The notes under the pieces: model-generated | What the model was told of the DNA's origin: nothing | Seen by the model: the letters and a program-made list of their open reading frames with translations, nothing else | The model's database searches: none | Assembly (NCBI GenBank): GCA_029939655.1 | Contig: JAOZSO010000001.1 | Location: forward strand, 1-34,229 | Reading direction: 5' to 3' | Length of the DNA stretch: 34,229 nt | Origin: Desulfobacterales bacterium | GTDB taxonomy: Bacteria; Desulfobacterota; Desulfobacteria; Desulfobacterales; B30-G6 | Made by a program: the position numbers and the translations under genes | Shown: piece after piece, positions 2,409-31,846 of the stretch | Numbering within the stretch: position 1 is the stretch's first letter | Layout: each line of letters opens with the position of its first letter

Positions 2409-2613
2409 ACATCTCCACTTTCGAGTAGGGAATGAAAAAAGCCTCTCTCTCAAGGAGAAGCTCAGTGTTTTTTTTATCAATAAGGTTTCGCAAAAAAATA
2501 AGGCCTTAACAGCTCTTGTCAACTACATTTGCCAACGGTCGTTTAAAGGTGAGCCATTTTGGGTCATGAGAATTGAGCCACATTAATTCGGATGATCGGC
2601 AACCATCCAGATA

Positions 2614-9066: not shown

Positions 9067-11715
9067 ATGAAAAATCTCTTCAAAACAATTTTGCATGATC
9101 GCCATGTCGACCTGGGTGCCCAGATGGTCGAATTCGGGGGCTGGGTCATGCCCATACAGTATCCACAGGGAATTGTCCGGGAACACCTTGCAACAAGACG
9201 GCATGCCGGTCTTTTTGATGTGTCGCATATGGGCCGATTCACTCTCCGTGGTCAGGATGCGCTGCCGTTTTTACAGCATGTCCTTTCCAACAATGCCGTC
9301 GGACTTGAGGAGGGAGAAAGTCAGTATACCTTGATTCCAAATGATCGCGGCGGCGCCATCGACGATGCCTATCTCTATCGCTTTCATGCAGATGAATACC
9401 TGCTGGTGGTCAATGCCGGCAACCGTCTCAAAGACTGGGATCACTTTCAGTCATCTCTGCCTGATTTCAAAAATGTCATCATGGAGGATAAAACCAAAGA
9501 CATATCCATGCTGAGCCTGCAGGGATCGACTTCCAAAGACATACTTCAAAAGATAATGGACACCGGCGCTCTTCCGGAACCCATGCGAAACCATCTCAGC
9601 ATTGCCACCATTCAAGGTAGAAAAGTATTGATCGCGCGCACGGGATACACCGGGGAACCCCTCTGCTTTGAACTGTTCATCGACAGTGCTGACACACCCG
9701 GTATCTGGGATCTGCTGATGGATCAGGGCGCCCACCCTGTTGGACTGGGTGCGCGGGACACTCTCAGACTTGAAGCAGGTCTTCCGCTGTACGGACACGA
9801 ACTGGGAATGGATCCGGACAATAAGGAAATCCCGATCTACGCGTCGCCTCTGTCAAGGTTTGCTGTGAGTCTGTCTCCTTTAAAAAAAGACTTCATCGGT
9901 CGAAATGCCCTTGAAAAGCAATTTGAAGCATTTAAAAAAATTGCTGACCGGGACTATTCCCTCATTCATGACCTCCCTCGCTGCATCATGCCGGTGGCAT
10001 TGAAAAAAAAGAGCGTAGCCCGTGCCGGATACAAGGTTTTTCAGGGTAATCGTCATGTCGGATATGTCACCAGCGGCACCATGATTCCGAGATGGGAGAT
10101 CGAGGGAGAAGGCATCTTCTCGAAATTGACCGAGAATCATGGTCTCAGAGGAATCTGCCTGGCACTGGTAGACAGCACGCTGGTGGAAGGCGACGACATC
10201 GAGATCGAAATCCGGTCAAAACAGGTGCCGGCGGTTATCGTTCCCTTTCATATGCGAAGCGAAGCACCGCCCTTTGCCAGGTCTATCCCCTGGGACAGGA
10301 TTGGGCAGGAAAAGGGACCGTCAGGAAAAGAGGAAATATCCAAAAACGTTCAATCTCTTCTCATAAAATCGATTCGAAATACAGAATGGCGGCAAAAGGA
10401 GTGCATCAACCTCATCCCGTCAGAACAGACCCAGTCCGAACTCATACGCTTGCTCTCCATCATGGACCCCTGCGGACGGTATGCTGAACACAAGCAGGTA
10501 AGTGCATTCAGTGAAGCCGAGGTTTTTTATTACCAGGGAACCGATTTCATTGCCGAAGTCGAGGCAAAACTCGAAACAGAGTTAAAAAAGTTTTTTGGGT
10601 GTCAGCAGGTCGAAACCCGACTGGTCTCGGGCCAGATGGCCAATATGGCCCTGTTCAGCGCACTGGTGGACTATATCAATCGAGCCGACCGGAAAAGTGA
10701 GCAACGACGACTCAGGAAAGTGATGAACAACCATATCATCAAAGGCGGCCATCTGAGTGCACAGCCCATGGGAGCGTTGAGAGACTTTGTGGCCCGGGAC
10801 CCCTTGTCTGAAAAACCGGCTGTGGTAAACTTTCCGGTCCTGCCCGAGAACCCCTATAAAATTGACCTGAGTGCCTGCGAGACTCTCATCCAAAAACATG
10901 AACCGGAACTTATTATCTTTGGCAAAAGTATGGTCCTCCACAAGGAGCCCGTCACAGAAGTTCGTCGAATAATCAATGGTCTGGGAATTGATTCGGTTAT
11001 CATGTACGATATGGCTCACGTTCTGGGCCTGGTAGGCCCCCACTTTCAGGAGCCATTTAAAGAAGGAGCGGATTTCATAACAGGATCTACCCATAAAACC
11101 TTTTTCGGGACACAACGGGGTATCATCGGCACGGATATCACGGATGAAGACCCCCGGTTCGAACTGTGGGAAGCCGTAAAACGCCGGGCATTCCCCGGAA
11201 GTGTCAGCAATCATCACCTGGGAACGATTTTAGGACTCCTGATGGCGACATACGAGATGAACCATTTCAAAGATGAATACCCTAAAAAAGTGCTCGACAA
11301 TGCACGCGTCTTCGCCAAAGCATTGAACGACTGCGGATTGAGCGTGGCCGGCGATCCGGAAATCTCTTTTACAGAAACCCACCAGGTTATACTCAACGTC
11401 GGCTATGCAAAGGGGCCTGCGATCGCCAGGAAACTGGAAGAGAACAACCTCATCGTCAACTACCAGGCAGCCCCGGTGGAAGAAGGTTTTACGGCTTCCG
11501 GATCTCTTCGCATGGGTGTACAGGAAATGACACGTTTTGGCATGGAGGCTACGGATTTCGAAGAACTGGCGCAATTCTTCAAGGATGTTCTGGTGGATAA
11601 CCGGACCGTCAAGGAAGCCGTTATATCGTTTCGAAACCGTTTTTTAGAGATGAAATACTGTTTTACAACGGATCAGGTCGGTGATAAAATCCAGAAATTG
11701 CATGAACTACTATAA
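9067..11715 (+). CDS. gcvT: Fusion protein: glycine-cleavage T protein (aminomethyltransferase) N-terminal half plus serine hydroxymethyltransferase-like PLP domain C-terminal half
   Basis: Residues 1 to about 420 are GcvT-like (HAGLFDVSHMGRF, EYLLVVNAGN, GARDTLRLEAGLPLYGHEL). Residues about 440-882 are SHMT-like (NLIPSEQ, VSGQMANMALF, YDMAHVLGLVG, PLP-lysine motif GSTHKTFFGTQRG). It is a single uninterrupted 882-aa ORF with an AAGGAG SD. Confidence 0.85.
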   Translation: MKNLFKTILHDRHVDLGAQMVEFGGWVMPIQYPQGIVREHLATRRHAGLFDVSHMGRFTLRGQDALPFLQHVLSNNAVGLEEGESQYTLIPNDRGGAIDDAYLYRFHADEYLLVVNAGNRLKDWDHFQSSLPDFKNVIMEDKTKDISMLSLQGSTSKDILQKIMDTGALPEPMRNHLSIATIQGRKVLIARTGYTGEPLCFELFIDSADTPGIWDLLMDQGAHPVGLGARDTLRLEAGLPLYGHELGMDPDNKEIPIYASPLSRFAVSLSPLKKDFIGRNALEKQFEAFKKIADRDYSLIHDLPRCIMPVALKKKSVARAGYKVFQGNRHVGYVTSGTMIPRWEIEGEGIFSKLTENHGLRGICLALVDSTLVEGDDIEIEIRSKQVPAVIVPFHMRSEAPPFARSIPWDRIGQEKGPSGKEEISKNVQSLLIKSIRNTEWRQKECINLIPSEQTQSELIRLLSIMDPCGRYAEHKQVSAFSEAEVFYYQGTDFIAEVEAKLETELKKFFGCQQVETRLVSGQMANMALFSALVDYINRADRKSEQRRLRKVMNNHIIKGGHLSAQPMGALRDFVARDPLSEKPAVVNFPVLPENPYKIDLSACETLIQKHEPELIIFGKSMVLHKEPVTEVRRIINGLGIDSVIMYDMAHVLGLVGPHFQEPFKEGADFITGSTHKTFFGTQRGIIGTDITDEDPRFELWEAVKRRAFPGSVSNHHLGTILGLLMATYEMNHFKDEYPKKVLDNARVFAKALNDCGLSVAGDPEISFTETHQVILNVGYAKGPAIARKLEENNLIVNYQAAPVEEGFTASGSLRMGVQEMTRFGMEATDFEELAQFFKDVLVDNRTVKEAVISFRNRFLEMKYCFTTDQVGDKIQKLHELL

Positions 11716-16771: not shown

Positions 16772-16809
16772 GCGATAAGCGGTATACTGCTTCTTGGGAA
16801 TAAGTATAT

Positions 16810-17021
16810 ACATTCGGTCGAGTATTTTCAATATATGTTTTTTTATTATACTGCCTGGATGAGTGGGACGTCTTATCATTTTTCGCATAATTCAATCTCC
16901 TAAGGATAGTCATCATAATTGACAACATATGCGTCTCCATCGATGAAATTAAAGAATAAACACCAATTGCCGGATACTTTGACTGCATGAAGGCTTTTAG
17001 ATTTACAAATTCAATCATCAC
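16810..17021 (-). pseudogene. Possible degraded higB/higA-type toxin-antitoxin remnant
   Basis: The ORF from 17021 begins MIEFVNLKAF...MMTILRRLNYAKN, which is loosely like the HigB killer-protein N-terminal half. A second frame from 16888 begins MRKMIRRPTHPGSIIKKHILK, which resembles the P-x-HPGE-x-L N-terminus of HigA antidotes. That second frame then runs into lipA antisense with no HTH domain. Similarity was judged by eye only. Confidence 0.3.
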
Positions 17022-17631
17022 ACATTGGCTATGGCGGCGATGTTTTGATTTAGCTCGAATTATGTTAACTATCTGAACTCACGGATATATTATGCTGTGT
17101 TACATAATCTTTAATTGGGAGGGGTCGCCAATTTTGATGTAATCTTCAATTTGCGAAGATACGACAGTATCGAAGACTTAAAACGCAAATCGTTTCAAGA
17201 ACAAAACACAAAAGGAAATGAAAAAAATATTGTGAAGCCCCTTTTTAAGGCGAAACTGTATTCCATTGGGTGAAGGGAGGTCATATAAGAGAATCCGCCG
17301 GTTGCGGTTTCTCGGTATTGGGAAGGTAGTGCCCAACCGGTTTCCTTCAATTATGCGTTGCCTATTCATATATAGTACTAATATCTTATTAAAAAAAGAA
17401 TCATTGTATTATAGACATTAGACATAAGATTTTCTGAATTTGGACTGTGTGCACCTTTTATTATAAATATATAAGTAATAAGAAGGATATCTAAGAATAT
17501 AAAACCTCCCAAAATAGCGAGATAGCAATCTATTTTTTCCTTGCAAGATATTTTCTTATATATATCACTCATCATGAACCTAATTTAGTCTATTGGCACG
17601 GTATACTTGAATATGGCTGATTAGTGTTCAG

Positions 17632-19068
17632 TTATATTTCACATTCATTTATAATTGCTTCCATTGCATCTTCTGCTCCTTCTGGTAAAGCCATCGGCTT
17701 GTGGTTCTTGATAAGAAATCTGGCTTTTTCATACGCCCTTTCGATAATGTCTTTCCCACCGATTTTTTTAACCCAGGTATCGCGGTCCATACAATCAAAC
17801 AAATCTCTTTGGGACATGCTTTTCATGTGTTTTAGTGTGTGTTTGCTAGATAAATATTCACCACCAGAGCTTACGCTTTGAATTGTTTCTAAAGCTATTG
17901 TCTCATCAGAAATGTCCATCCCATTTTTTATCCATTTTAAATTCCTTAATTGTTCAGCATCCAGAATCAGCTTTGCAAAATCAAACGTCAGTCCTGATTC
18001 AATAGAACCACATCCATAGATGACATTAGATCCGGCCAGTAATGCTATAGCCGTATTTGTGTTAAATTCATAAGCGGCCTGTACATCCATAAGTTTACTT
18101 CCGCTAACACCTGAACCACACCAACTTGGGATTCCATAATATTGCGCCATTTTTGCAGTCCCAACATTCAAAACACCACATTCTGGGGCAGCGACAGCAG
18201 GATTACCGAGTTTCAAATCCATAATTGTTCCCACACTACCATAAATGAAAGGTGTACTTTTTGAAGTAAGTTGGGTCAAAACTAAAGAACCAAGAAGTTC
18301 TGCATTCTGTACAACCAGGGTTCCAGCGATTGTCGTGGGCGCCGTAGCACCACTCAATGGCATCGTAATTGAACAAACCACAACACCTAATCTTGAGCAT
18401 TCTATAATGACATCACAGCAATTCTTAGAGAGTGTGAGTGGGCTAGTTGGGCAAACGGTGGTGGACACACAAGGACGCTTAATAAAATTCTCCATGCCAC
18501 CGACGCAGGCCGCTGCCATCTCAACAATCTTTATTGAGTTTCTCCCACTAAAAAAACCATGAAAGGCATGCTTACTTGTGTTTGAAACAATTGCTTCGTA
18601 ATTATGCATGGACTGCGTCTCGGCAGGCTTATCCCGTGATCCCATACATTTTTCAATAATTGCAAATTCATCTAACGCATCAGCCAATCGTGTTGCATCC
18701 CCTAAATCTTTCTTTGTACAAGTTCTGTGTTTTAAAGTGTAAAGGTCGTTAGTATAAGAATTTTCACCAAATAGTGTATAGCAGGAACTTCCAGGTTCGA
18801 TAAGATGATCGTGTTTGGGATCCCTTCCATACAAAACAAACCGTTCTGGTGCCCATTGAACACAATCACTAACTACGGATGGAGGAATCTTAACAACAAA
18901 ACAATCCCCCTTTTTAACAATCTCCGATCCAGCACCATGAAAGATCTCTGTTGCCTCATCTGACTCAATTTTTATCCCCGTATTTTCCAATATCTTAATA
19001 GATGCATGATGAATTCTATGAAGTTGTTCATTTGTAATCCCTTCTATTTGATATCCGAGCATATACAT
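17632..19068 (-). CDS. MttB-superfamily (COG5598) methyltransferase, non-pyrrolysine paralogue; probable quaternary-amine:corrinoid methyltransferase
   Basis: 478 aa, uninterrupted. It is colinear with the Pyl-type mttB below (CPTSPL, MPLSGATAPTTIAGTLVVQNAELLG, APECG). A sense Val codon (18106-18108) sits where mttB has TAG. Confidence 0.85.
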   Translation of the reverse strand: MYMLGYQIEGITNEQLHRIHHASIKILENTGIKIESDEATEIFHGAGSEIVKKGDCFVVKIPPSVVSDCVQWAPERFVLYGRDPKHDHLIEPGSSCYTLFGENSYTNDLYTLKHRTCTKKDLGDATRLADALDEFAIIEKCMGSRDKPAETQSMHNYEAIVSNTSKHAFHGFFSGRNSIKIVEMAAACVGGMENFIKRPCVSTTVCPTSPLTLSKNCCDVIIECSRLGVVVCSITMPLSGATAPTTIAGTLVVQNAELLGSLVLTQLTSKSTPFIYGSVGTIMDLKLGNPAVAAPECGVLNVGTAKMAQYYGIPSWCGSGVSGSKLMDVQAAYEFNTNTAIALLAGSNVIYGCGSIESGLTFDFAKLILDAEQLRNLKWIKNGMDISDETIALETIQSVSSGGEYLSSKHTLKHMKSMSQRDLFDCMDRDTWVKKIGGKDIIERAYEKARFLIKNHKPMALPEGAEDAMEAIINECEI

Positions 19069-19134
19069 TCCTCTTCAAGTACTGATATAGGCATAATGAA
19101 CAATTGTTATAGCTTCAATTAAATTAATATAAAC

Positions 19135-19788
19135 TTATTCAACGCTAAGCAATTCTTTAATTTTTTCTACGCCATCTTGAGCATTTTTTGCATACGCATC
19201 AGCTCCAATTCTCGCGGCCCAACGGGGAGTTACCGGTGCACCGCCGACAACTGTTTTAAAGCGATCTTTTAATCCTTCAGATTTAAGCACAACTTCTAGG
19301 TCCTTCTGTCGCGGCATGGTTGTGGTAAGCAGCGCGCTGGTACCAATAATATCCGCATCAATCTCTATGGCTGTTTCAATTATTTGCTGGGTGGCCACAT
19401 CCCTCCCTGCATCATGGACCTTAAATCCATTTGCTTGCATCAGTGAAACAACAATGCATTTTCCAATATCATGAACGTCACCCTGGACTGTAGCAATAAG
19501 AACTGTCCCTTTTTCTTGCTTAGCGTTAATCCCGCCACTTAAAGTTTCATTCACCATGTCGGTAACCACCTTCATGATTTCCGCAGCTTGTATAAGCTCT
19601 GGTAAAAACAACCTGCCGCGTCCAAACAAGTCACCCGTTGCGTTAATTCCTGGAATAAAACCTTCCTCCATCAGTTCCAGTGGGCTGCCCCCATCACTGA
19701 GATAATTTTTTACGATCTCAATGGCCCTGTCTTTGTTTGCTTTAATTAGAACTTCCGCCGTTTCTTCGATAATACTTTTATCGATCAT
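19135..19788 (-). CDS. Corrinoid (cobalamin-binding) methyl-carrier protein, MtbC/MttC-like
   Basis: 217 aa. B12-binding DxHxxG motif GDVHDIGK, plus SALLTTT and GGA elements. An N-terminal helical cap domain is present. Confidence 0.9.
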   Translation of the reverse strand: MIDKSIIEETAEVLIKANKDRAIEIVKNYLSDGGSPLELMEEGFIPGINATGDLFGRGRLFLPELIQAAEIMKVVTDMVNETLSGGINAKQEKGTVLIATVQGDVHDIGKCIVVSLMQANGFKVHDAGRDVATQQIIETAIEIDADIIGTSALLTTTMPRQKDLEVVLKSEGLKDRFKTVVGGAPVTPRWAARIGADAYAKNAQDGVEKIKELLSVE

Positions 19789-19847
19789 AGCTTTTTTCCT
19801 TTTCCCTAATAGGCATTAATAGAATGCTTGAGGTTTTGAATCCAGCC

Positions 19848-21221
19848 CTAACGTCTGAAACGGTTTAGGGAATTAATTTCAATATCCAACAGTTTTGCAA
19901 TATTATATTTTGCTTCAATGCCTTTTGGAGAACCCATGGTGGAATAGACACTCCCTATCTTATGGTCTTCTCTAACATCACTCATCACAGCAGCATCAGT
20001 AAGCTCATTAACACTAATTCCTAATTTGTCCGCCACATACTTTTTTGCATCTTTTATTTTCATAGCCCGGGTCATTTGCATGCGTGCGACCAGATCTCCG
20101 GAAGTACGCATTCCGCCCATGCCTGCGGCCATTGCATGTGGTATCGCCACCCCTGCGGGGTCTCCGTCGCCAACCTACAACCCGTCCAATCGTGTAATCT
20201 CTAAATGTGCCTTTGAAGCCATGGTCACTGCGTCAATCGGTGGTGTATAACACAATGGTAAACCGCCCACCCCCATTCCTAAATTCGCATGTACAGGAAT
20301 TTCAGCAGCGTCAACACAGGCTTTTGTGAATGTAACCGCACGTGCAATGTTCCAGGGAATAGACTCGGTAGGATCTGTATTTATCGCTGGTCCGAATATG
20401 TCCACACCAGCTTCTTGCGCGACCTTAACCTGTTCGTGGGGATAGAGCCCGGCAAGGCGTACACCGTTGTGAGAAATCTCCCCATGCATTCCCAAGATAA
20501 ATTCCCCGGCCATTCCGATTTCGACACACATACTTGGGTACTTCTCCTTCAGCTCCTGCACCGCTAATAATGTTGCTTTAAAATCAGGATCACCAGAACC
20601 CCCAACCGTATCGAAATTTATCCCATCCGCTCCAGCTTCAAATAGGGAGGATGATACATAAACCATATCACGAACAGAATGCTCGATAGCTTCATCGTAT
20701 GCATCACGCGCTTCTTTGATTTTTCCCTGAGGAATCAGTTCTGCCGGGTTGGTGACAGGCCCATCCGGTTTGGTGTAAAGACCGAGATTTGGCATTGATC
20801 CATAAAAGACAGGAGCCACCATGAGCAATTGTGCTTGCTCCATGAGAGGAACATTTTCTCGAACGATGTGTTTTGCTTGCTTGAAGCTGTAATCGAGGTC
20901 TGATAGCTCAGTGGTGTCAGCTCCGAAACAACGCTCATAGGTCTGAAGCACTTGTAAGCGACCGGTATTTATGCCAAGCCTTCCGATCTTATTGCTTCCA
21001 CCATCATAGGTCATTATAACCTCATACCCTTTTTCAACCCCTGATATGCTACAACTGCATTTGCATATTTCAAACAAATGTTTTCGTTCATCATCAGTGA
21101 GAGGCTGTATCTCTGCCCGATCTGCGGCATCCAGGGTTCCATCTTCAATGTCTTGAATTAGTTCTTTTTCATCTATCTCAACAGAAAAACCATCTCCCAT
21201 GCGGGTTATTACTTTGCTCAT
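19848..21221 (-). CDS. mtbB: Dimethylamine:corrinoid methyltransferase with an in-frame UAG (predicted pyrrolysine) at 20175-20177
   Basis: Track ORFs 20175..21221 and 19848..20150 are in the same frame. Translation across the gap reads [42 protein letters not shown], and the TAG is the only stop. The combined 457 codons are colinear with Methanosarcina MtbB (about 467 aa) along the whole length. AAGGAGG SD precedes the ATG at 21221. Confidence 0.9.
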
Positions 21222-21235
21222 TTAGTCCTCCTTTA

Positions 21236-22702
21236 TTATATTCCTAATTCCTTTTCCGCTTCCTCCACAATTGAGTGAATTCTCTTTTGGATATCATCCG
21301 CTATTGGATCAGGAGTATGAGTCTCCAGAATTTCTATGGCTTTCTCCGTTGCTTTTTTGTATATATCCGGCTTGCCGGCTTGTTCCCAATCTTCACGCAT
21401 CGTTCGGTCAAAAACTCTGGGCGCAGATATAGATCTCATGTGGCGTAGCGTGCTATCATGGCTGAGGAAGTCTTTCCCGATTCCAATTTCTTTTATAGCA
21501 TCCACAGCCAGGGTTTCATCATTTACCGCTATCCCGTTCACCACATGCCTGACCATTTGTGCAACTTCATTATCCAACACAAGTTGTCCAAAATCAAAGG
21601 TCATTCCCATCTCGATCATTCCCATGCCGTATATCAGGTTGGCCCCTGCCAACGCCGGCAATAACGACGTCATCGTTTTTTCATGACCGGTTTGGAAATC
21701 TGTAGCTTTTGTATCGCCCTACCCGCCGGCAACAAAGCTTGGCAATGCATAATAACGAGCCAATCTCGCAACAGCCGCACTGATCATTGCGCATTCTGGG
21801 GATCCCACCGATGCGCTCGCCATTCTTAAATCCATGGCTGTCGTCGAACTGCCGTATATGACCGGTCCACCCTTTATAGTGAGCTGGTTAAGCAAAATTC
21901 CAGATAGAATTTCGGCGTTATGGATTACCAATGTCCCGGCAAGTGTTACCGGAGACGAGCCTCCCGCCATTGCCATGGAGAGAATATTGACACCGATTCC
22001 GTGTCTAGCTGCCCCCATGATGACTTCACAGGTATCTTTAACCAATTTAAGCGGGCTCACCGGACAAGTGATCGTTGTGTAGATGGGTCTCTGCCTTAAC
22101 GCATCCTTGCCACCAGCGATTACGGTAGCCATTTCCACTATTTTATCGAGTTGGTAACCTGAAAATGCTCCCATGAAAAGGTGTTTACTTGTATTGTTGA
22201 ATGAATCTTCCGCATTATAAATCTGGGCAATTTCCTGAGGAACTTCATGTGCTCCAACGGCCCGTTCATAGACATCGATCTCGCTCAGATAGTCAGCCAA
22301 CTTGGCTGCATTGGCCACATCTTTTCTGGTGGGCTTTCTTCTTTCACCCGTGTAGGGATCGATTACAAAAACGCCCTCTCCAAAAGTAGTAAACCCGACT
22401 CTATTGCTTTCTAATATGGTATCGTTTTTTGGATTGCGACCTGCCAGAAAGAGCTTTGGCGGAGCACTGCGAATGGCATCTTCCACTATATATGGAGGAA
22501 TTTTTACGATTTTCTTTTTTGCATTAACGGCGGCACCACCACCATCAAAAATATCCAGAGCTTCCTCATCTTCAACAAATATTCCAGTTTTCTCAAGAAT
22601 CTCTAATGTTGCCAAATGAATTTCGTCGCACTCCTCTTCAGTAAATGAATTTAGGCCGAATCCGCCACTGAGCTTCTTCCCTGCATGTAGGTTTCGCTTC
22701 AT
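21236..22702 (-). CDS. mttB: Trimethylamine:corrinoid methyltransferase with an in-frame UAG (predicted pyrrolysine) at 21719-21721
   Basis: Track ORFs 21719..22702 and 21236..21673 are in the same frame. Translation reads [45 protein letters not shown]. The combined 488 codons are colinear with Methanosarcina MttB (about 495 aa), and the TAG is the only interruption. Confidence 0.9.
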
Positions 22703-22790: not shown

Positions 22791-22822
22791 CTGGAGCCTT
22801 GTTATTAACAACAAGGCTCCAG
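22791..22822 (-). terminator. Probable intrinsic terminator hairpin after the solute-binding-protein gene
   Basis: Perfect 13-bp stem ctggagccttgtt / aacaaggctccag with a 6-nt loop, beginning 6 nt after the TAA stop. On the minus strand it is followed by UUCUUCUAUG, a partial U-tract. Confidence 0.55.
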
Positions 22823-22828
22823 CTTTGA

Positions 22829-24412
22829 TTATGCAAACCACCATCGTTCATGGATTCTACGACCGTCATACATGGCATTGGAGGCAATGGTGTTATACCT
22901 CAATTTACTGCTTGCTACATAAACAAAGTTACTAAAAATGGGAATGATTGAGGAACCTTCATCATGGACAATTTTTTGCATTTCCCAATACATATCGCGA
23001 CGCTTGACTTCATTCAGCTCAGATCGAGCCTCTTTGAGGAGCTTGTCGAATCGTGCATTCTTCCAATAGCTCTCATTCCAGTTTGCTGATCCAGCATATA
23101 CAAGCGATAACATCCAGTCTTCTGTGGGCCGACCATACCAGAAACTCCAGCACATGCCTTTCTTCATCCATACATCCTCCCAATAACCGTCATTCGGTAC
23201 CTTTTTAGTCTTGAGTTTCACTCCTGCTTTTTCGGCAGACTCTTGGAATAAGAGAGCCGAGTCTATTGCCCCGGCAAAAGCTGTATCAGCGGCATAAAGC
23301 TCGAAAGTATGATCTAACATACCGGCTTTCTTCAAGTAAAATTTAGCCTTATCCGGATCATAAGTCCTCTGAGGCAATTCAGAGTTGAAATATCGGTTCT
23401 TCTGTGAGATTGGATGATCGTTTCCAAGAGAACCGTAACCACGTAAAACCTGTTTTAACATCAACTCACGATCAAAAGCGTATTTTAATCCCAATCGGAC
23501 ATTATTATCATTGAAGGGCTTCTGGGTCGTCAACATAGGCATGGTATAGTGGGCATACCCTGGAACGTCTATAATTTGCACATTTTTATTCTTTTTCAGA
23601 AATTGAACCGTCTTAAGATCAGGTCGGGCAAATACATCTAATTCGCCGGTTACTACAGCAGAGGTCCTGGATACGACATCCGGTAAGGCCATCGTTTCAA
23701 CTTCATCAAAATAGGGAAGTCCCTCCTTGAAATAATTTGGGTTACGCGTAGTGAAAGCCCGGACACCTGGCTCCCAACTTTTAAGGATAAAGGGGCCTGT
23801 TCCCATCCCTTTTTCAAAATCGGTTGTCCCGTTTGGTACGACCATAAGATTCACTTCTGCCAAGAAATAGGGGAAGTCGGCATTCCCTGATTCAAGTGTG
23901 AAGATCACCTGGTTGTTACCATCTTTCTTTATGTCCGTAACAGGCTTAAGAATACCTTTTGCCGGAGATTTGGTCTTTTCGGTTCTACTAAGATTTATGG
24001 AATAGATAACGTCATCAGCATCCAGCGGCTTGCCGTTATGAAATTCGACGCCTTTTCGGAGGTTGAAAATCCATTGTTTTGCATCCGGTGTTGACTCCCA
24101 GTTTTCCGCAAGCTCCGGGGTAGCAACACCTTTTTCATCAATTACAATCAACTGGTTTCGACATTGTTGACTGACCAATTGAGGCATAATATCTGTCAAC
24201 AATGTGATATCTAGGCTCTCTGTTGTGGCACCACTGTGGCTCCCAATTCTCAAGCGGCCACCCTGTTTGGGGGTTGCGGCATGTGCTGTGCTATTAGCCA
24301 ATAAAGGCGACATAGCCACAGAAAGCCCCATAGCAGACACGTAGGCTAAGAAATCGCGGCGAGTAATTTTCCCTTGAAATAGCAAACGTTCCAACTCCTG
24401 CAATTTTTCCAT
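22829..24412 (-). CDS. ABC-transporter substrate-binding protein, family 5 (peptide/opine/nickel type), with a Tat-type signal peptide
   Basis: 527 aa. Twin-arginine motif TRRDFLAYVSAMGLSVAM...AHA. The length and sequence character are those of DppA/OppA-like SBPs. AAGGAGG SD is present. Confidence 0.8.
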   Translation of the reverse strand: MEKLQELERLLFQGKITRRDFLAYVSAMGLSVAMSPLLANSTAHAATPKQGGRLRIGSHSGATTESLDITLLTDIMPQLVSQQCRNQLIVIDEKGVATPELAENWESTPDAKQWIFNLRKGVEFHNGKPLDADDVIYSINLSRTEKTKSPAKGILKPVTDIKKDGNNQVIFTLESGNADFPYFLAEVNLMVVPNGTTDFEKGMGTGPFILKSWEPGVRAFTTRNPNYFKEGLPYFDEVETMALPDVVSRTSAVVTGELDVFARPDLKTVQFLKKNKNVQIIDVPGYAHYTMPMLTTQKPFNDNNVRLGLKYAFDRELMLKQVLRGYGSLGNDHPISQKNRYFNSELPQRTYDPDKAKFYLKKAGMLDHTFELYAADTAFAGAIDSALLFQESAEKAGVKLKTKKVPNDGYWEDVWMKKGMCWSFWYGRPTEDWMLSLVYAGSANWNESYWKNARFDKLLKEARSELNEVKRRDMYWEMQKIVHDEGSSIIPIFSNFVYVASSKLRYNTIASNAMYDGRRIHERWWFA

Positions 24413-24538: not shown

Positions 24539-25837
24539 TCAGGAAATTACAGCAAAAGAATCATCCATGATTTGGAGTGACTGATCTATCTGGACTTTAG
24601 TCATGACAACAGAAGGGACAAGCCGAATTGAATTGCCAAACCAGCCTTGTCCAGCTGGCAAAATCAAACCTCTCTTACCAGCCTCTTTTTTCAACCTAAT
24701 TGATTCCTCTTTTGCAGGCTCTTTGGTTTTACGGTCTTTTACGAGCTCGACCCCTATCATTACACCTTTACCGCGAACATCGCCTATGACATCATATTTG
24801 TCTTGTAATTTCCTTAATCCATTCATCCAATATTTTCCCAATTCTTCGGCACGTTCCCATGGCTTTTCTTTCATTATCGTTTCAATACTTGCCAGCGCAG
24901 CAGCCGCCATCAACGGGTTACTTCCAAAAGTTGTATAGTATAGAGGCGGCTCCGGCTCCGCAAATGCTTGGGCTATTTCGTCAGTGGTTAAAAGCGCCGA
25001 TATTGGCAGCCCCCCCCCTAATGTTTTTGACATCGTGATCATATCAGGAACGATTCCATAATGCTCAAAACAAAACTTTTTGCCGGTGCTGCCGAATGCA
25101 GTAAAGATTTCATCCATGAAGAGAAGAATATTGTGTTTATCAAGAATTTTTTTGATTTCCTGAAAATAACCATCCGGGGCTGGTATATTGCCGGCGGTTC
25201 CTTGTATGGGTTCTGTTACGAAAACGGCCACTTCGGAGGATGTATCATAATACAAAGCATCTTCCAGCATTTTGGCACACTGTAAGTTACAAGCTGGATA
25301 TTCCAAGCCAAGCTGGCACCGATAGCAATAATACGAAGGGATGCGCGTCACCCCTGGTAACATAGGTCCCATCCCTTTTTTTAATGGTGCAAAACCTAAC
25401 AGACTGCGAGCACCATGAGTTCTCCCGTGAAAGTCGCCATATAGTGATACCATTTCATATTTTTTAGTGTATTTTTTAGCTAGAAATAGAGCGACCTCAA
25501 CTGCTTCAGCCCCTGCATTTGCAAAGTAAACCTTGTTAAAAGGTTCAGGTACCACGGATAGAAGCTTTTCAGCCAGGTCCCTGGCGGGTTTTGTATTATA
25601 GTCGATAGCTAAGGAATACATTTTCCCGACTTGTTCTTTCACAGCCTCAACTACCGCAGGGTGGTTATAGCCGATCAATGTCGCACATCCATGGGAACAA
25701 AGTAAGTCGATATATTCTCTTCCTTCCGAATCTTTCAACACAGCCCCTTTTGCCTCGACAAAAATAATTTCTTCATCCCCAAAATGGTGTCGAACACATG
25801 GCAAAAAATAATTTCCGTTTTCACTTTTTATTTCCAT
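24539..25837 (-). CDS. Class-III (omega-amino acid type) PLP-dependent aminotransferase
   Basis: 432 aa. GAEAVE, FMDEIFTAFGSTGK and the PLP-lysine context DMITMSKTLGGGLPISA are typical of the acetylornithine/GABA aminotransferase family. Confidence 0.85.
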   Translation of the reverse strand: MEIKSENGNYFLPCVRHHFGDEEIIFVEAKGAVLKDSEGREYIDLLCSHGCATLIGYNHPAVVEAVKEQVGKMYSLAIDYNTKPARDLAEKLLSVVPEPFNKVYFANAGAEAVEVALFLAKKYTKKYEMVSLYGDFHGRTHGARSLLGFAPLKKGMGPMLPGVTRIPSYYCYRCQLGLEYPACNLQCAKMLEDALYYDTSSEVAVFVTEPIQGTAGNIPAPDGYFQEIKKILDKHNILLFMDEIFTAFGSTGKKFCFEHYGIVPDMITMSKTLGGGLPISALLTTDEIAQAFAEPEPPLYYTTFGSNPLMAAAALASIETIMKEKPWERAEELGKYWMNGLRKLQDKYDVIGDVRGKGVMIGVELVKDRKTKEPAKEESIRLKKEAGKRGLILPAGQGWFGNSIRLVPSVVMTKVQIDQSLQIMDDSFAVIS

Positions 25838-25864
25838 TGTTCTGTCCTTTCCGCAGTTAAGATA

Positions 25865-27628
25865 TTAACCAAAATCTAAATCATCCACCGGGATACCATC
25901 CTCATTCCAACCTCTAAGCTGGTAATAATTCTGAATCATTTTTTCCAGTTCTTCCGGTTTAATAACCTTCCCACCACTTATGGGCTCGGAGAAATATCTC
26001 GGTGGCAGGGTATCATCCTTTTTCGATATGCCTTCTCGCAGGTTAAACCGTCGGCTAAGATTACGAATGTTCGCCGCAATTTCTTTAAGACCATCATGGT
26101 TAAGTTTCATGCCCATTGTGCCTTGGATTATTTTGGCCAAACCATCCCAAGCATAGATATCACGATAAAACCTGCAGGTAATAAATGCATCATGCAGCGT
26201 AAGGCGATCTTCGAAATCAATTGCTATTTCAGCCTTACCTTCAATTTCATCAGGTGCTATTTGCCCGGACAGTTCAGCCTTGAAAACAGTGCTTCGTAAA
26301 TGGCATGCGCCTCTATCCGAAGTCGCATACGCCAGGCCCATTCCTTTTAGAACTCTTGGATCATAAGCTGAAGGCTCTAAACCTTTAACGTGAATGGCTA
26401 TATCTTTCATACCCCATTCTTGAGCTGCATGTCGTATCCCTTCAGCCAAAACAGCTCCTATGCCACGTCGATAGGCAATATCATTTAGTAATGAAACAAT
26501 ACCGTCTACATCTCCGTAGTCATACTTTTCTTTGATTTTGCCTCGTCTGGAAGCTTCTATAGTAAAAGCGGCTAAATTGCCTGCGGTAATTGTATCCAAG
26601 CCCAACCGATCACAGACATCGTTGAGGTAGACGATCTCATTAATATTAGGAATCTCGCAGAGGCCCCCAAAAGAATATATTGTCTCAAATTCGGGGCCTT
26701 CAAGTTTTAAGCCTTTATGCCTACCATCCCTTACTTCGGTTAACCTTCCGCAGGCCATTAAGCATTTAGCACAAGCATGGGGCTTGACATTACACTGTTC
26801 ATGAAGACCTTCGGCCGAAATATTCTCCCAACCGTCAAGAGTACCTTTAGACCAATAACGCGTGGGAAATGAACCGATTTTATTGAGAACACTCACCAGA
26901 GCCGGTGTGCCCTTAGTCTTAAAACCTTGTATGACAGGATTTGTCTTTCTTTCAGAACTTATCTGAGACCATAGTTCTTCCAATATTTCAGGTTCGGCTA
27001 CCTCTTTTTGGGCGGACCCGCTAAAGGCCATACCCTTAATATTTTTAGCGCCTAAAACCGCACCAATACCTGTCCTTCCGGCAGATCGCCAGTAATTGTT
27101 TGCCACTAACGAAAAACGCACAAGGTTTTCACCCGCAGGACCTATAACCATGATACCGGATTGTTTACCTACAAGATCACGAACAGCGTCTTGGGCGTCA
27201 TAAACCTCCATCCCCCAAATATTTCCCGCTTCGTGAAAAGTTATGCCGTTGTCCGTAATTTCCAGAACAGTCGGGCTTGATGCAGCGCCCCGCAATATGA
27301 AAGCATCGTACCCAACATGCCCCATGAATTCTGCAACAGACCCCCCCGAATAGGACTCAGCATATATCCCTGTTTGAGGTGATTTACTGAATAAACCATA
27401 CCGACTGGAACCCCATACTTTGGTATTTACAGTCGGGCCTAACGCGATCACCACGTGATTATCCGGAGAAAAAGGATCAATATTTGGCTTGTTCTTTTTT
27501 AAGAGCAGGTACGTGGCAAGACCCTTTCCTCCTATCAGAGACTCATAGATGCTGTCTGGGATTTCTATAGTGTTGCTGGTTTCATGCGTCAGATCAATTT
27601 CCAATACTTTCCCGTAAACCCCCTTCAT
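25865..27628 (-). CDS. aor: Aldehyde:ferredoxin oxidoreductase family protein (tungstopterin / 4Fe-4S)
   Basis: 587 aa. The N-terminus GKVLEIDLT..., the CxxCxxxC cluster motif (CAKCLMAC) and the overall AOR-family architecture are present. Confidence 0.85.
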   Translation of the reverse strand: MKGVYGKVLEIDLTHETSNTIEIPDSIYESLIGGKGLATYLLLKKNKPNIDPFSPDNHVVIALGPTVNTKVWGSSRYGLFSKSPQTGIYAESYSGGSVAEFMGHVGYDAFILRGAASSPTVLEITDNGITFHEAGNIWGMEVYDAQDAVRDLVGKQSGIMVIGPAGENLVRFSLVANNYWRSAGRTGIGAVLGAKNIKGMAFSGSAQKEVAEPEILEELWSQISSERKTNPVIQGFKTKGTPALVSVLNKIGSFPTRYWSKGTLDGWENISAEGLHEQCNVKPHACAKCLMACGRLTEVRDGRHKGLKLEGPEFETIYSFGGLCEIPNINEIVYLNDVCDRLGLDTITAGNLAAFTIEASRRGKIKEKYDYGDVDGIVSLLNDIAYRRGIGAVLAEGIRHAAQEWGMKDIAIHVKGLEPSAYDPRVLKGMGLAYATSDRGACHLRSTVFKAELSGQIAPDEIEGKAEIAIDFEDRLTLHDAFITCRFYRDIYAWDGLAKIIQGTMGMKLNHDGLKEIAANIRNLSRRFNLREGISKKDDTLPPRYFSEPISGGKVIKPEELEKMIQNYYQLRGWNEDGIPVDDLDFG

Positions 27629-27705
27629 AATTTTCTTCCTTTTATCTTATTTGCGTTAATATGATGAGTTAAACGATTCTTAATAAACCTGCTGAAATAC
27701 CCTGA

Positions 27706-28017
27706 CTACGGTGGATCATACATGTATAAGTTAAGATCTTTAGATAAACTCAGCTCCAAAATATTCATTAGCATTTTCTCTTTATGCTTTGGAGACAATT
27801 TAACTACTAGACAGGTTCTGTGATCTTCTTTCTCGCTGAAAAAGTTGTACTTAATGCCTCCTTTATTAAATACTGAGAGAAAATCAATTATTTCTTGAAA
27901 ACGGGTCCTTGGTTCACCATAGGTGTTTTGTTCAAAAATTAGATAGCTGTATTCAGGATCTAATCTGTCGTTGATACTTCCGAAACGAGCAAACACTGAT
28001 TTAGTGTGTTGATTCAT
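27706..28017 (-). CDS. Hypothetical small protein (103 aa)
   Basis: It lies in the same orientation between the dehydratase and aor. ATG start, TAG stop. I recognise no motif, so coding status rests on ORF length and operon position only. Confidence 0.4.
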   Translation of the reverse strand: MNQHTKSVFARFGSINDRLDPEYSYLIFEQNTYGEPRTRFQEIIDFLSVFNKGGIKYNFFSEKEDHRTCLVVKLSPKHKEKMLMNILELSLSKDLNLYMYDPP

Positions 28018-28100
28018 TTATTAAGACTTTATAGATAATCATTGTTCACAGGCTTTAGAGCACCAACCTATAGAAACAATAAATCCTCATTTAATATTTA

Positions 28101-29759
28101 TCACTCATACGCCAATACAGCACCTTTATCGGCCGAGCTTACCAAGAGCGAATATCTTTTTAAAAACTTACTACATTCTTTTTTAATTGGCTTAAATTTT
28201 TTCATACGTTCAGCAAGTTCAGTATCAGTTACATCAAGGTGTAGTTTTCGAGCCGGTATGTCTATTTCGATAATATCTTCCTCTTCTACTAAACCAATGG
28301 GACCACCAACAACTGCCTCAGGAGAGACATACCCAATGCAAGGTCCCCGTGTTGAACCGGAAAATCGACCATCAGTCACCAAGGCGACACAATCTCCTAG
28401 GCCCAATCCCATCAATATTGAAGTCACCATGTGCATCTCTCGCATCCCTGGCCCCCCTTTGGGCCCTTCGTAGCGGATGACCATCACGTCCCCGCTCATG
28501 ATTTGATCACCCATCAGAGCTTTTACAGCATCTTCCATGGAGATAAATATTCGGGCCGGGCCCTTGTGGGTCATCATCTTTTCATGGACACCGCTTTGTT
28601 TTACCACAGATCCGTCAGGTGCGAGATTACCATACAAAATGGCGAGGCTTCCTTCATGATGAAGAGGAGAATTTAAGGGTCTGATTACATCTTTATCGAG
28701 GACATGAACCGATTCGATATTTTTCCTCATCGTTCGTCCTGTTACCGTAGGTACGTTGGTATCGATTCGATCTCCAAGTTCCTTTATTACCGCCGGAATT
28801 CCCCCTGCTTCCTCTAACCGCAACAGTGGATATTTCCCTGATGGTATAATATCGCAAATATGCGGTGTTGTTTTGCTGATGAAATCGAGTTTTTCCAACG
28901 TATAATTGAAACCGGCCTCGAGCGCGATAGCTGGGATGTGAAGTGCTAAATTTGTTGAGCCCCCTATGGCCATCGCGACTGTGGTGGCATTTTTTATAGC
29001 GATTTCAGATATTATTTTTGAAGGGATTAAATTCTCATTTACCATCTGTACAATTCGAGATCCAGATTGACGAGCCAGTCTTGTCTTCTTGGTACTTTGT
29101 GCATGGGCTGTCCCACAACCTGGAAGCGTCATGCCTAGGGCCTCTGCAATACATGACATTGTGTTTGCTGTTGCCATCATCGCACAACTCCCCGGTCCGG
29201 GTAGGGCGCACTGTTCTATTTCAGCCAATTCGTCTTGAGATATATCACCGCGTTTAGTTTGCCCGATAAATTCACGCATGCTTGTTAGTGTAATGTTTTC
29301 ATTTTCTCTGAATTTACCAGGGTACATGGGGCCGCCAGTGACGATAATCGTTGGAATATCAAGCCTTAAAGAAGCCATGATATGTGCCGGCACGATTTTA
29401 TCGCATGAACACATCATGACCATTGCATCGAATCGATGACTTTCCACCATTAGTTCGATAGAATCAGCAATGATCTCACGGCTAGGTAGAGGATATCTCA
29501 TACCGATGTGACCTTGACACAAACCATCGCAGATAGCGATTGTGTTGAACTCAATGGGTATCCCTCCAGCTTCACGGATTCCTTCCTTAACTGATACAGC
29601 AAGCTCACGGAGATGATAGTGACCGGGCACGATCTCGTTCCATGAATTTACCACCGCAATGATGGGCTTTCCAAAATCCTCTTTGCTAAATCCCACGGCA
29701 TGCAGCAACGCTCGGTGAGCCGATCTTTCCAAGCCGGTATAAAGTTCTTTGCTTCTCAT
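28101..29759 (-). CDS. ilvD: IlvD/Edd-family dehydratase (dihydroxy-acid dehydratase-like)
   Basis: The N-terminus [23 protein letters not shown] matches the IlvD pattern. Fe-S ligand contexts CDG, CDK and [15 protein letters not shown] are present. The track start at 29783 is a TTG. The ATG at 29759 is preceded by AGGGAGG. Confidence 0.85.
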
Positions 29760-29879
29760 CGTAACGAATTCCTCCCTATTCAAACTACAGTTAAAGCTCC
29801 ACTACCAAAGATAAGAACGTCTTAATAAAATAGAATAAAGCATCTATATTTTAATAAGGTGAATGACCAAATATATATC

Positions 29880-29896
29880 AGCAAAAACAATGCCAA
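29880..29896 (-). promoter_or_regulatory. Sigma-54 (-24/-12) promoter upstream of the dehydratase operon
   Basis: The minus strand reads TTGGCATTGTTTTTGCT, that is TGGCAT-N5-TTGCT with the canonical GG-N10-GC spacing. It lies about 100-120 nt upstream of the ilvD-like start and immediately downstream of a sigma-54 enhancer-binding-protein gene. Confidence 0.75.
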
Positions 29897-30091
29897 TAGC
29901 AGCTGGTTTTATAATGTGTGTAATTTTAGCAGGTTAAGAAATAGAAGGCTAAAAATAATTTGGCAGATAATACATATATGAATTGAAGGGCATATAACAT
30001 GTTGAGATATCTACAGATATTAATTATACAAATATGAATAAATAATAAATATTAAATATCTTATTGATTCAGTATGTTGTAATTAATTAAT

Positions 30092-31846
30092 TCATTTCTG
30101 AATTAAACCGAATGAAAGCCCATGTTTTTTCAACTTGCGGAAAGCGGTTGGCTGGCTGATCCCCAGAAGCTTTGCAAGCTCGTGAGTTGTTTTGCATTTT
30201 GGCATGGCGCTTTTCAGTACCTCCTTTTCAAACGATAACAGCGAGTCCGATAAATTCTTTTTTCGTGTTGCTGAAGAGTTGCTTTTTGTAAGTAGTGCGA
30301 AGGATCCTTTCAATGCCTGTAGGATCAATACATCTAAATTTCTTTCTTCGCTGATGACTACTGCTTGTTTAATCACATTCATCAACTCGCGAACGTTTCC
30401 CGGAAATGGATAGGATTGAAGCGCTTCTACAGCCTTGGCTGTTATCCACCGTTGCACACCATAGGCTTTATTATATTTTTCAAGAAAATGTGTAGTAAGT
30501 TCAAATATGTCATTCTGCCGTTCGCGAAGGGGTGGAATTTTTAAGGTAAAGGAATTTAAACGATAGTACAAATCCTCTCGAAATTTATTGATTTTTGTAA
30601 GGTTGCCCAAATCACGGTTTGTTGCAGCGATGACGGTACAATCTATGGCTATGGTTTTTGTTCCGCCCAGACGCGTGATGATATTGTCATCAAGATATTT
30701 CAGGAGCTTCGCCTGAGTTGTTAAGGACAAATCACCTATTTCATCTAAAAAAAGAATTCCCCCCTGAGCCAATTCGAACAAACCAGCCTTACCTTCTTCG
30801 CTAGCTCCAGTAAAAGCACCTTTCTCGTAACCAAAAAGTTCCGCCTCCAAAAGGTTTTCGGGCACAGCTGCGCAGTTGATTTGAATAAGTGGCGCCTTTT
30901 TTCTTTTGCCGTTCTGGTGTATGAATTTTGCCAAAAGCCCCTTTCCGGTCCCGGACTCTCCCAAAATTAAAATATTGGACACCTTTAGTGTTGCAAGTTT
31001 CAAAGCAATTCTCAGCACCTGTCTCATCTCCTGACTTTTTGCAATAATTTCCTGCTGCTTCAACTCTATCACACTAAGTTCATTGAGTTTGTCCTTGTAT
31101 TTATTTGCAACCAAACGAGTTTCATTTAATTGCTTTTGTATTGCATTTAGCTGTGAAAGATCTCGTTCATTGAGCACCACCATATAAATATCACCGTTCT
31201 CATTAAAAACTGGTGTTCCGGTTACCAATAAATGCTTTTCTGTTTTCTGGACGTATACAAGTAAGCTTACTCGACGTTTTGTTTTTAGTATCTCCATTGT
31301 AACACTTCGATCTATTATACCCTTATCAACCATCATAGAAACATTTCTACCAATGATATCCTTTTCCTTCCATCCATTTAGTTGTTGAGCTGCTTTGTTC
31401 ATGCGGATAAAATTCCCCCGGCCATCCAAAATAACAAGACCGTCGGAAGAAGAGGAGAAAACCGTTTCAAATTGATCGGTTAGCTGTTGGTATGATTCTA
31501 ACCTTTGAGCTGAATTTTCAAACTGCTGCATTTTCTGGAAGTTGCTAACAGCGCCAACAACCATTCCGGCTTTTCGAATAGCGGTAACGTTTACAACAAG
31601 ATGAACATTTTTCCCCCGAATATGGACACCAATTTGGGGCTTACCGGTTTTCAGACAGTCGACGATATGATGACTGGTTAATGGCAACACTTCAATGACA
31701 TTAGAGCCAATAACTTCGTTTTTCTTTAATCCCAATATCCTCATAGCTTTCTGATTGACTAATACGATACAACCGCGAGCATCTGCAGCGATAACACCGT
31801 TACTGGTTGAATTAAATATATCCTGAACGGTAATTAAATGTGACAT
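30092..31846 (-). CDS. Sigma-54-dependent transcriptional activator with two N-terminal PAS domains and a C-terminal Fis-type HTH
   Basis: AAA+ core with GESGTGKGLLAKFIH and the GAFTGA motif (EKGAFTGA), plus ESELFGYE-like ELFGYEKG. The C-terminus HELAKLLGISQPTAFRKLKKHGL is an HTH. Confidence 0.9.
   Translation of the reverse strand: MSHLITVQDIFNSTSNGVIAADARGCIVLVNQKAMRILGLKKNEVIGSNVIEVLPLTSHHIVDCLKTGKPQIGVHIRGKNVHLVVNVTAIRKAGMVVGAVSNFQKMQQFENSAQRLESYQQLTDQFETVFSSSSDGLVILDGRGNFIRMNKAAQQLNGWKEKDIIGRNVSMMVDKGIIDRSVTMEILKTKRRVSLLVYVQKTEKHLLVTGTPVFNENGDIYMVVLNERDLSQLNAIQKQLNETRLVANKYKDKLNELSVIELKQQEIIAKSQEMRQVLRIALKLATLKVSNILILGESGTGKGLLAKFIHQNGKRKKAPLIQINCAAVPENLLEAELFGYEKGAFTGASEEGKAGLFELAQGGILFLDEIGDLSLTTQAKLLKYLDDNIITRLGGTKTIAIDCTVIAATNRDLGNLTKINKFREDLYYRLNSFTLKIPPLRERQNDIFELTTHFLEKYNKAYGVQRWITAKAVEALQSYPFPGNVRELMNVIKQAVVISEERNLDVLILQALKGSFALLTKSNSSATRKKNLSDSLLSFEKEVLKSAMPKCKTTHELAKLLGISQPTAFRKLKKHGLSFGLIQK

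Follow-up and report, generated by a model that had tools for sequence, protein, structure and literature searches.

A compact pyrrolysine methyltransferase block with a single corrinoid protein in a Desulfobacterales bacterium

How could three methyltransferases for methylated amines share one methyl carrier, and where would the methyl groups go if the proteins that accept them are encoded elsewhere? A four-gene block on contig JAOZSO010000001.1 of a Desulfobacterales bacterium (GenBank assembly GCA_029939655.1) raises these questions, as it encodes the pyrrolysine (Pyl) methyltransferases MttB and MtbB, a non-Pyl MttB paralogue and a single corrinoid protein. Among the substrates of marine methanogens, methylamines and quaternary amines are the classic "non-competitive" ones, and sulfate-reducing Desulfobacterales that consume trimethylamine (TMA) and dimethylamine (DMA) via pyrrolysine divert carbon from methane. 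We analyzed a 34,229-nt stretch of the contig, here called the window; all absences and counts reported for the window refer to these 34 kb. It matches a 25-kb JGI metagenome contig (3300013099), of which NCBI also has a deposit. In our reading, the block is an operon with which an uncultured marine Desulfobacterales demethylates methylamines and quaternary amines, and we assign this reading, together with the mechanism proposed below as a whole, a probability of about 0.65.

Four genes and two in-frame UAG codons

Using open reading frames (ORFs) and profile searches, we identified four co-oriented genes on the minus strand (17632-22702), in the order mttB, mtbB, corrinoid protein gene and non-Pyl mttB paralogue. 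The intergenic gaps are 14, 59 and 66 nt, and a Shine-Dalgarno sequence of the AGGA/GGAGG type precedes each of the four starts. A first-pass annotation, made from the DNA letters alone, had named these genes, their strand and their Pyl codons, and had described the layout, with the same gaps and good Shine-Dalgarno sequences, as operon-like; coordinates, Pfam and NCBIfam matches and the alignment of the TAG codons uphold both points.

The mttB gene (21236-22702, minus strand, 488 codons) encodes a Pyl-type TMA:corrinoid methyltransferase. It matches Pfam MTTB (PF06253; E = 8e-94) and, with X at its stop codon, scores 755 bits against TIGR02369, the NCBIfam model for [trimethylamine-corrinoid protein] Co-methyltransferase, whose equivalog cut-off is 525. 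Its single in-frame TAG (21719-21721, minus strand), flanked by FVAGG and GDTK, aligns exactly to Pyl334 (shown as X) of the best solved relative, Methanosarcina barkeri MttB (7xcl, 427 bits), and we infer from this alignment and from its retention in the related loci L006 and L007 that it is read as Pyl. The structure paper of 7xcl ties Gly110, Met249 and Tyr364 to pyrrolysine and TMA activation. In our alignment to 7xcl all three residues are kept in the window MttB, and Thr111 is replaced by Glu. A match to the Rfam family PYLIS_3 (RF02510; 21622-21721, minus strand) starts at the UAG and scores 60.8 bits (gathering threshold 38; E = 6e-11). At another locus, L047 (~18356), a full-length MttB that falls inside the Pyl clade carries Trp at the Pyl position.

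The mtbB gene (19848-21221, minus strand, 457 codons) encodes a Pyl-type DMA:corrinoid methyltransferase, with matches to Pfam Dimeth_Pyl (PF09505; E = 5e-188) and to TIGR02368 (495 bits, cut-off 369). Its in-frame UAG lies at 20175-20177 (minus strand) between RLDGL and VGDGDP and is presumably also read as Pyl; a TAG occupies this position in all 90 of the bacterial mtbB genes that we extracted. Here, too, an Rfam match starts at the UAG: PYLIS_2 (RF02509; 20078-20177, minus strand) scores 69.4 bits against a gathering threshold of 36 (E = 1e-15) and includes an 11-bp hairpin at 20080-20111. Across 88 bacterial sequences, 92.5% of the cells in this hairpin are paired, compared with 17-45% when the partners are slid, and one pair at third codon positions shows all six standard pair types, a sign of covariation. 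The synonymous substitution rate (dS) of mtbB also drops from ~1.4-1.8 upstream of the UAG to 0.4-0.5 downstream. Folding of the hairpin region from the window sequence alone was not better than that of shuffled sequences (z = -0.05). We considered whether the hairpin is a novel RNA element in mtbB and rejected this, as it is part of the existing PYLIS_2 family.

Both TAG codons are kept in L006 and L007, the two closest sequenced relatives. When the window was compared with these loci, the ratio of nonsynonymous to synonymous substitution rates (dN/dS) past the stops was 0.07-0.10 in both genes, as low as upstream: 0.07 in mttB against L007, and 0.085-0.10 in mtbB. This selection and the conservation of the TAGs led us to reject them as pseudogene stops and indicate that the UAGs of mttB and mtbB are translated through. 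By sequence comparison, the alignment of both TAGs to Pyl positions, together with PYLIS matches that start there, is far beyond chance. TAG is also the genuine terminator of 3 of the 23 window genes (an AtuA-like gene, mtbB itself and an acyltransferase gene), so the organism has an ambiguous UAG rather than a fully reassigned one.

The last gene of the block, the non-Pyl mttB paralogue (17632-19068, minus strand), encodes 478 aa with no internal stop and matches Pfam MTTB (PF06253) with E = 5e-89. It is 39% identical to the window Pyl-MttB, and Val321 (GTT, 18106-18108) occupies its Pyl position. The paralogue is nearer to Pyl-MttB (7xcl, 282 bits) than to MtgB (2qne, 187 bits), and in a tree of 60 MttB-family genes from related loci it belongs to a clade with V or I at the Pyl site that is sister to the UAG clade. 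Its homologues are found in metagenome-assembled genomes of Desulfobacterales and Desulfococcaceae and in the delta-1 symbiont of Olavius algarvensis. We regard the paralogue as a probable quaternary-amine methyltransferase; given this similarity and its place in the tree, we do not assume glycine betaine as its substrate. PYLIS_3 also matches the paralogue at a position homologous to the Pyl codon (18009-18107, minus strand; 40.5 against the gathering threshold of 38). As its helices are broken, we judged this match to be probably coding-sequence homology; it may also reflect an ancestral mttB that contained a UAG.

The only corrinoid (B12-binding) carrier protein of the block (19135-19788, minus strand, 217 aa) combines B12-binding_2 (PF02607) and B12-binding (PF02310). 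The cap domain and the Rossmann B12 domain with the His-on motif are both present, the DxHxxG motif reading DVHDIG (residues 104-109, 19462-19479), and the closest solved relative is MttC (7xcn_M, 163 bits).

Conservation of the block and the whereabouts of its partners

We compared the gene layout in five lineages including the window, whose paralogues are 79-96% identical to that of the window. With T for Pyl mttB, D for Pyl mtbB, c for the corrinoid protein gene, t for non-Pyl mttB and SBP for a solute-binding protein gene, the layout is SBP-T-D-c-t in the window and in L089/L090, and SBP-T-D-c-t-MT2 in L006/L085-88, where MT2 denotes the methyltransferase that unloads the methyl-corrinoid. 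L091 reads (T)-D-c-t-aminotransferase. The order T-D-c-t is therefore found in four of five lineages, the exception being L007 (SBP-T-D-t), from which the corrinoid gene is absent; a 126-nt gap (11374-11501) lies where it was lost between mtbB and the paralogue.

More distant relatives (L002, L004 and L005; paralogues 57-60% identical to the window's) show a fuller locus in the order sigma-54 activator, t, T, MT2, D, one corrinoid protein gene, a small ORF, a second D and pylT. The genes pylS, pylB and pylC come next in L002 and L004, where the contig continues, and in L005 MT2 and pylT are seen before the contig ends. Divergently transcribed from these loci are a URO-D gene (L002, L004) and an MFS gene (L002, L004, L005). 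A single carrier amid three or four genes for substrate-specific methyltransferases (MT1s) is thus, by comparison of the loci, a conserved design. The first-pass annotation had singled out one carrier among three MT1s as unusual. The arrangement is real, as the four lineages show, but its rarity does not hold, as a shared carrier, MtqC, has a precedent in Eubacterium limosum.

The same annotation had listed the expected partner genes as missing within 34 kb, and in the window they are indeed absent. Searching the window by tblastn with the Pterin_bind MT2, URO-D MT2, PylS, PylB and PylC of a related locus returned no significant match, and a tRNA search of the window found no tRNA at all, hence no pylT. 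The other mtbB contigs of species-level relatives (L013, L021, L071) carry no pyl genes either. There is also no room for mtmB or ramA in the window, since 22 of its 23 large ORFs, including all four block genes, have other Pfam assignments. The sole unmatched large ORF (1209-2522, minus strand, 437 aa) belongs to no Pfam or NCBIfam family and adjoins an AAA_14/DUF4143 ATPase gene (2614-4017).

As an oddity, the lack of partners did not survive comparison: MT2 and pyl genes lie beside homologous loci, and the lineage typically lacks mtmB (PMC1976440). The MT2 found in L006, a Pterin_bind protein, passes the methyltetrahydrofolate:corrinoid methyltransferase model NF005719 (357 bits, cut-off 259). 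An MT2 gene comes directly after the block in L006/L085-88; the window and L007 have none there, and neither does L089 within the 1.3 kb of contig past the block. Judged from these layouts, MT2 is a variable accessory of the block, and the absence of partner genes looks to be an effect of the window. MT2, the pyl genes and even the carrier gene vary in their presence in cis, so their functions can be supplied in trans, as is clear from L007, which is without even the corrinoid gene.

Where L006/L085 have MT2, the window has 860 bp of AT-rich sequence (16772-17631, 35% GC) with small ORFs only, one of which encodes a 65-aa hydrophobic peptide. We rejected an MT2 remnant here, as tblastn found none and only 52 nt of similarity was seen, to the region after MT2 in L006. 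Near this stretch the GC content steps from ~0.50 (4-16 kb) to ~0.39-0.48 (17-32 kb). What lies beyond differs per lineage: a glycine-cleavage/lipoate cluster in the window, gyrB/dnaN in L007, and in L006/L085 first MT2 and then other genes. The suggestion that the glycine-cleavage/lipoate neighborhood is relevant to the block was not borne out; with a different right-hand flank in every relative, we rejected a functional tie and regard the proximity as incidental. The window cluster is headed by an 882-aa ORF (9067-11715, plus strand) in which a GcvT aminomethyltransferase (1-395) is fused to a divergent SHMT-like domain (432-859), followed by gcvH-gcvPA-gcvPB-lipB-lipA.

Upstream genes and the neighbors of bacterial mtbB

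Upstream of the block, all on the minus strand, Pfam and NCBIfam matches identify a family-5 SBP with the Tat signal TRRDFL (Pfam SBP_bac_5; 22829-24412), a class-III aminotransferase (24539-25837), an aldehyde oxidoreductase (AOR; 25865-27628), an ilvD-type dehydratase (28101-29783) that passes the true dihydroxy-acid dehydratase equivalog, and a 584-aa PAS-PAS sigma-54 activator (30092-31846). The SBP gene is also immediately upstream of mttB in L006, L007, L089 and L090. The order activator, ilvD, a 103-aa ORF, AOR, aminotransferase, SBP (24539-31846, minus strand) is syntenic in L007 (1-8390). The activator shares 52% identity over its full length with its counterpart in L002, which is encoded directly ahead of the methyltransferase genes. 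A sigma-54 promoter-like site, TGGCAT-N5-TTGC (29881-29895, minus strand), lies ~100 nt upstream of ilvD; L007 has TGGCAC-N5-TTGC at the same place, and in L002 TGGCTT-N5-TTGCA stands before the first gene of the methyltransferase locus.

Between the SBP stop and the mttB start is a 13-bp perfect hairpin with a U-rich run (22791-22822). It is kept in L007, with a compensatory change from U-A to C-G, and is absent from L006. This hairpin may be an attenuator of read-through or an mRNA stabilizer of the SBP message. Just upstream of the activator gene are a homologue of choline/carnitine O-acyltransferase (32805-34181; Pfam E = 6e-123, no NCBIfam match) and an alpha/beta hydrolase gene (31884-32762), both on the minus strand. 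To our knowledge, choline/carnitine O-acyltransferase is unusual in bacteria, and a link of this gene to quaternary-amine metabolism is possible.

At least 489 mtbB-encoding stretches turned up when one genome per GTDB species was scanned. Bacterial Pyl-MtbB is thus common. Most stretches come from Desulfobacterota, others from Dehalococcoidia, Spirochaetota, Clostridia and further groups, and two loci are from cultured strains, Desulfospira joergensenii and Desulforhopalus singaporensis. We clustered the proteins encoded within 10 kb of mtbB at 79 loci (L006-L084) from GTDB genomes. MttB is a neighbor at 50 of the 79 loci, corrinoid proteins at 39, class-III aminotransferases at 28, pyl genes at 16-20, AOR at 15 and Pterin_bind MT2 at 12. 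Family-5 SBPs and an 814-aa DAO+GCV_T protein resembling DMGDH or methylaminobutyrate oxidase each occur at 11 loci, and aldehyde dehydrogenase (ALDH) and BCCT transporters at 5 each.

The aminotransferases include a clade of 12 members that sits mostly immediately upstream of mtbB. One scanned member of this clade (L069, D. singaporensis) passes the gamma-aminobutyrate (GABA) transaminase equivalog TIGR00700 with 547 bits (cut-off 507). The window aminotransferase falls outside this clade, far below the TIGR00700 cut-off, and belongs to a different, uncharacterized subclade. In a neighbor-joining tree, mtbB subclades coincide with neighbor types, and genomes carry several mtbB paralogues that are ~55-65% identical. 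The neighbor pattern, which is evidence from gene neighborhood only, suggests together with the lineage-wide lack of mtmB that some bacterial MtbB paralogues may act on N-methylated amines other than DMA, or that their product may go to transamination and aldehyde oxidation. Why bacterial mtbB has no mtmB partner and so frequently lies near genes for aminotransferases, aldehyde oxidoreductases and transporters is, in our view, the more consequential point.

A proposed pathway, its alternatives and known systems

The gene identities, the Pyl codons, the PYLIS matches, translation past the UAGs and the conservation of the block are directly supported; from them we infer the substrates, the shared use of the carrier, tetrahydrofolate (THF) as the acceptor and the regulation. 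In the pathway that we propose, MttB would activate TMA and MtbB would activate DMA, each via the pyrrolysine at its UAG (21719-21721 and 20175-20177, respectively), and the Val-substituted paralogue would remove one methyl from a quaternary amine, a substrate that is already charged. All three MT1s would load the methyl onto the Co(I) form of the one block-encoded corrinoid protein. A Pterin_bind methyltransferase (MtgA/MtqA/AcsE-like) would then discharge the methyl-corrinoid to THF, and methyl-THF would be oxidized via the reverse Wood-Ljungdahl pathway. The MT2, a RamA-type activase and pylTSBCD would be encoded elsewhere in the genome and act in trans, as the L007 locus, lacking even a corrinoid gene, suggests. 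No Pyl enzyme of this lineage would act on monomethylamine (MMA). A sigma-54 regulon probably unites the block with the ilvD-AOR-aminotransferase-SBP genes upstream of it.

Several observations weigh against this pathway. The window encodes neither an MT2 nor a RamA-type activase, and it contains no pyl genes. The carrier scores below the curated cut-offs, both for TIGR02370 (200.3, cut-off 215.3) and for the MtbC model NF041607 (196.8, cut-off 350); it is a corrinoid protein of the superfamily but, by these scores, neither a curated member of a specific cognate family nor a clear orthologue of any characterized cognate carrier. A search directly upstream of mttB for a sigma-54 site or a clear sigma-70 promoter gave nothing convincing, and this result, together with the conserved hairpin between SBP and mttB, leaves co-transcription of the block with the upstream genes uncertain. 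Finally, the metabolism of free TMA and DMA does not explain the conserved SBP, aminotransferase and AOR neighbors.

These neighbors are accommodated by a different scheme, in which the Tat-exported SBP captures a larger quaternary amine, R-N(CH3)3+, the non-Pyl MttB, the Pyl-MttB-like and the Pyl-MtbB-like enzymes remove its three methyl groups in turn, the class-III aminotransferase deaminates the resulting primary amine and AOR oxidizes the aldehyde, so that the Pyl enzymes would not, or not only, be TMA and DMA enzymes. The clearest case would lie elsewhere, in a route from gamma-butyrobetaine or 4-methylaminobutyrate through GABA to succinate at loci where a GABA-transaminase-type gene adjoins mtbB. 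Synteny of SBP-mttB-mtbB-corrinoid-mttB2 in four lineages and a class-III aminotransferase adjoining the block in four of five speak for this scheme. It also fits the mtbB neighbor counts for aminotransferase, AOR, ALDH, BCCT and DAO+GCV_T, the 12-member aminotransferase clade upstream of mtbB with its GABA-transaminase member, the match between mtbB subclades and neighbor types, and the several mtbB paralogues per genome, ~55-65% identical (PMC1976440). Moreover, E. limosum leaves 4-dimethylaminobutyrate undegraded (PMC8604678), which implies a consumer missing in nature. However, the window MttB exceeds the equivalog cut-off for TMA methyltransferase by a wide margin and has lost none of the residues named for TMA activation, and characterized MttB-family enzymes are described as stringently specific (PMC13044021). 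The window aminotransferase is not in the GABA-transaminase clade and is far below its cut-off, ilvD, a true dihydroxy-acid dehydratase equivalog, has no role in the scheme, and a hairpin separates the SBP gene from mttB. With its evidence consisting of gene neighborhood only, we consider serial demethylation unlikely; if true, it would extend pyrrolysine enzymes to new substrates and provide a way to demethylate quaternary amines completely under anaerobic conditions. A related idea is that MMA derived from MtbB is handled without MtmB, being converted by the aminotransferase to formaldehyde and by AOR to formate, which would explain the lineage-wide absence of mtmB. We know of no aminotransferase that uses methylamine, the best-linked aminotransferase clade resembles GABA transaminase, and MMA could instead be excreted or assimilated as a nitrogen source. 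We find this conversion very unlikely, even though mtbB is recurrently linked to an aminotransferase plus AOR or ALDH and mtmB is absent both from the window and from the delta-1 symbiont with its six mtbB genes (PMC1976440).

The two other alternatives start from the missing MT2. If the non-Pyl paralogue were a discharging enzyme, unloading methyl-corrinoid onto a tertiary amine or some other acceptor, no separate MT2 would be needed, in keeping with blocks that lack one (the window, L007, and L089 as far as its contig extends) and with the constant company that the paralogue keeps with the Pyl enzymes. Yet all characterized non-Pyl members of the MttB family are MT1s that demethylate quaternary amines, and a THF-type MT2 stands beside the same block in L006/L085 and also in L002-type loci, which makes such a role highly improbable. 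The block could also be a decaying or inactive remnant in an organism without Pyl machinery, its TAGs being real stops and its lack of MT2 a loss of function. The 34 kb without pyl genes, MT2 or activase, the use of TAG as a genuine terminator by 3 of 23 genes, and the absence of MT2 where the L006 lineage has it would fit decay. Strong purifying selection downstream of both TAGs, two frames intact to full length, conserved PYLIS_2 and PYLIS_3 and a block conserved in five lineages speak so strongly against it that we give decay almost no credence.

The demethylation operon that we favor has close counterparts among known systems. Zhang and Gladyshev (2007; PMC1976440) reported that the O. algarvensis delta-1 symbiont has six Pyl-MtbB, two Pyl-MttB and no MtmB, with a single pylTSnScBCD set. 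The symbiont is a Desulfobacterales relative with multiple Pyl-MtbB/Pyl-MttB proteins and, as in the window, no MtmB, and it has a non-Pyl MttB homologue among the matches of our paralogue. That study catalogued genes, without carrier or MT2 analysis, and did not describe this exact four-gene block. In marine Deltaproteobacteria, Kivenson et al. (2021; PMC8318568) found Pyl-MttB encoded near its cognate corrinoid protein and an MT2 candidate of the metH family, at a locus that also holds ramA, a regulator gene and a gene for non-Pyl MttB; most of their genomes had several MttB copies and Pyl-MtbB, and methyl transfer to THF with oxidation via the reverse Wood-Ljungdahl pathway was proposed. 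Shared with their Deltaproteobacteria-bbl are a Pyl-MttB with its UAG near residue 327, a corrinoid protein, a candidate MT2 of the metH/Pterin_bind type, a regulator and a non-Pyl MttB, and L002, L004 and L005 show a fuller layout of this kind. The window differs in its order (mttB-mtbB-corrinoid-mttB2), in having MT2 and the pyl genes not in cis, and in a sigma-54 activator set apart from the block by ilvD-AOR-aminotransferase-SBP.

In M. barkeri, the mtbC-mttB-mttC-mttP-mtbB1 cluster works with MtbA and RamA (Paul et al. 2000, as cited in PMC8318568). Clustering of TMA and DMA methyltransferase genes, both with Pyl, the chemistry from MT1 to corrinoid, and PYLIS_2 and PYLIS_3 past the UAGs are common to both systems. 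Methanogens have a separate cognate corrinoid protein for each MT1 and a CoM-methylating MT2 of the URO-D type, whereas the window has one carrier, an additional non-Pyl MttB and THF as the likely acceptor. The first-pass annotation drew the contrast in carriers fairly, but it is not new for bacteria. In E. limosum, three MttB-family MT1s (MtpB, MtcB and MtyB) methylate the same corrinoid protein, MtqC, in vitro; MtqC and MtqA/RamQ are encoded in clusters apart from the MT1 genes, and the acceptor is THF (Ellenbogen et al. 2021; PMC8604678). Those MT1s differ from ours in that all are non-Pyl quaternary-amine enzymes, with no use of TMA or DMA and no Pyl. Desulfitobacterium hafniense MtgB/MtgC/MtgA (2qne, 9yce) likewise combines a non-Pyl MttB-family MT1 with a corrinoid protein and a Pterin_bind MT2; the window paralogue differs in being more similar to Pyl-MttB than to MtgB.

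One carrier, partners encoded elsewhere and no mtmB each have a published precedent (2007, 2021), and the picture drawn in those years is unchanged by this locus. For the question of whether Pyl and non-Pyl methyltransferases can draw on the same corrinoid protein, the block would be a convenient target. Compared with the known systems, what is specific to the window locus is its gene order and its conserved SBP and aminotransferase neighbors, and what it adds is a compact, conserved variant, with one carrier and three MT1s, of machinery that is already published.

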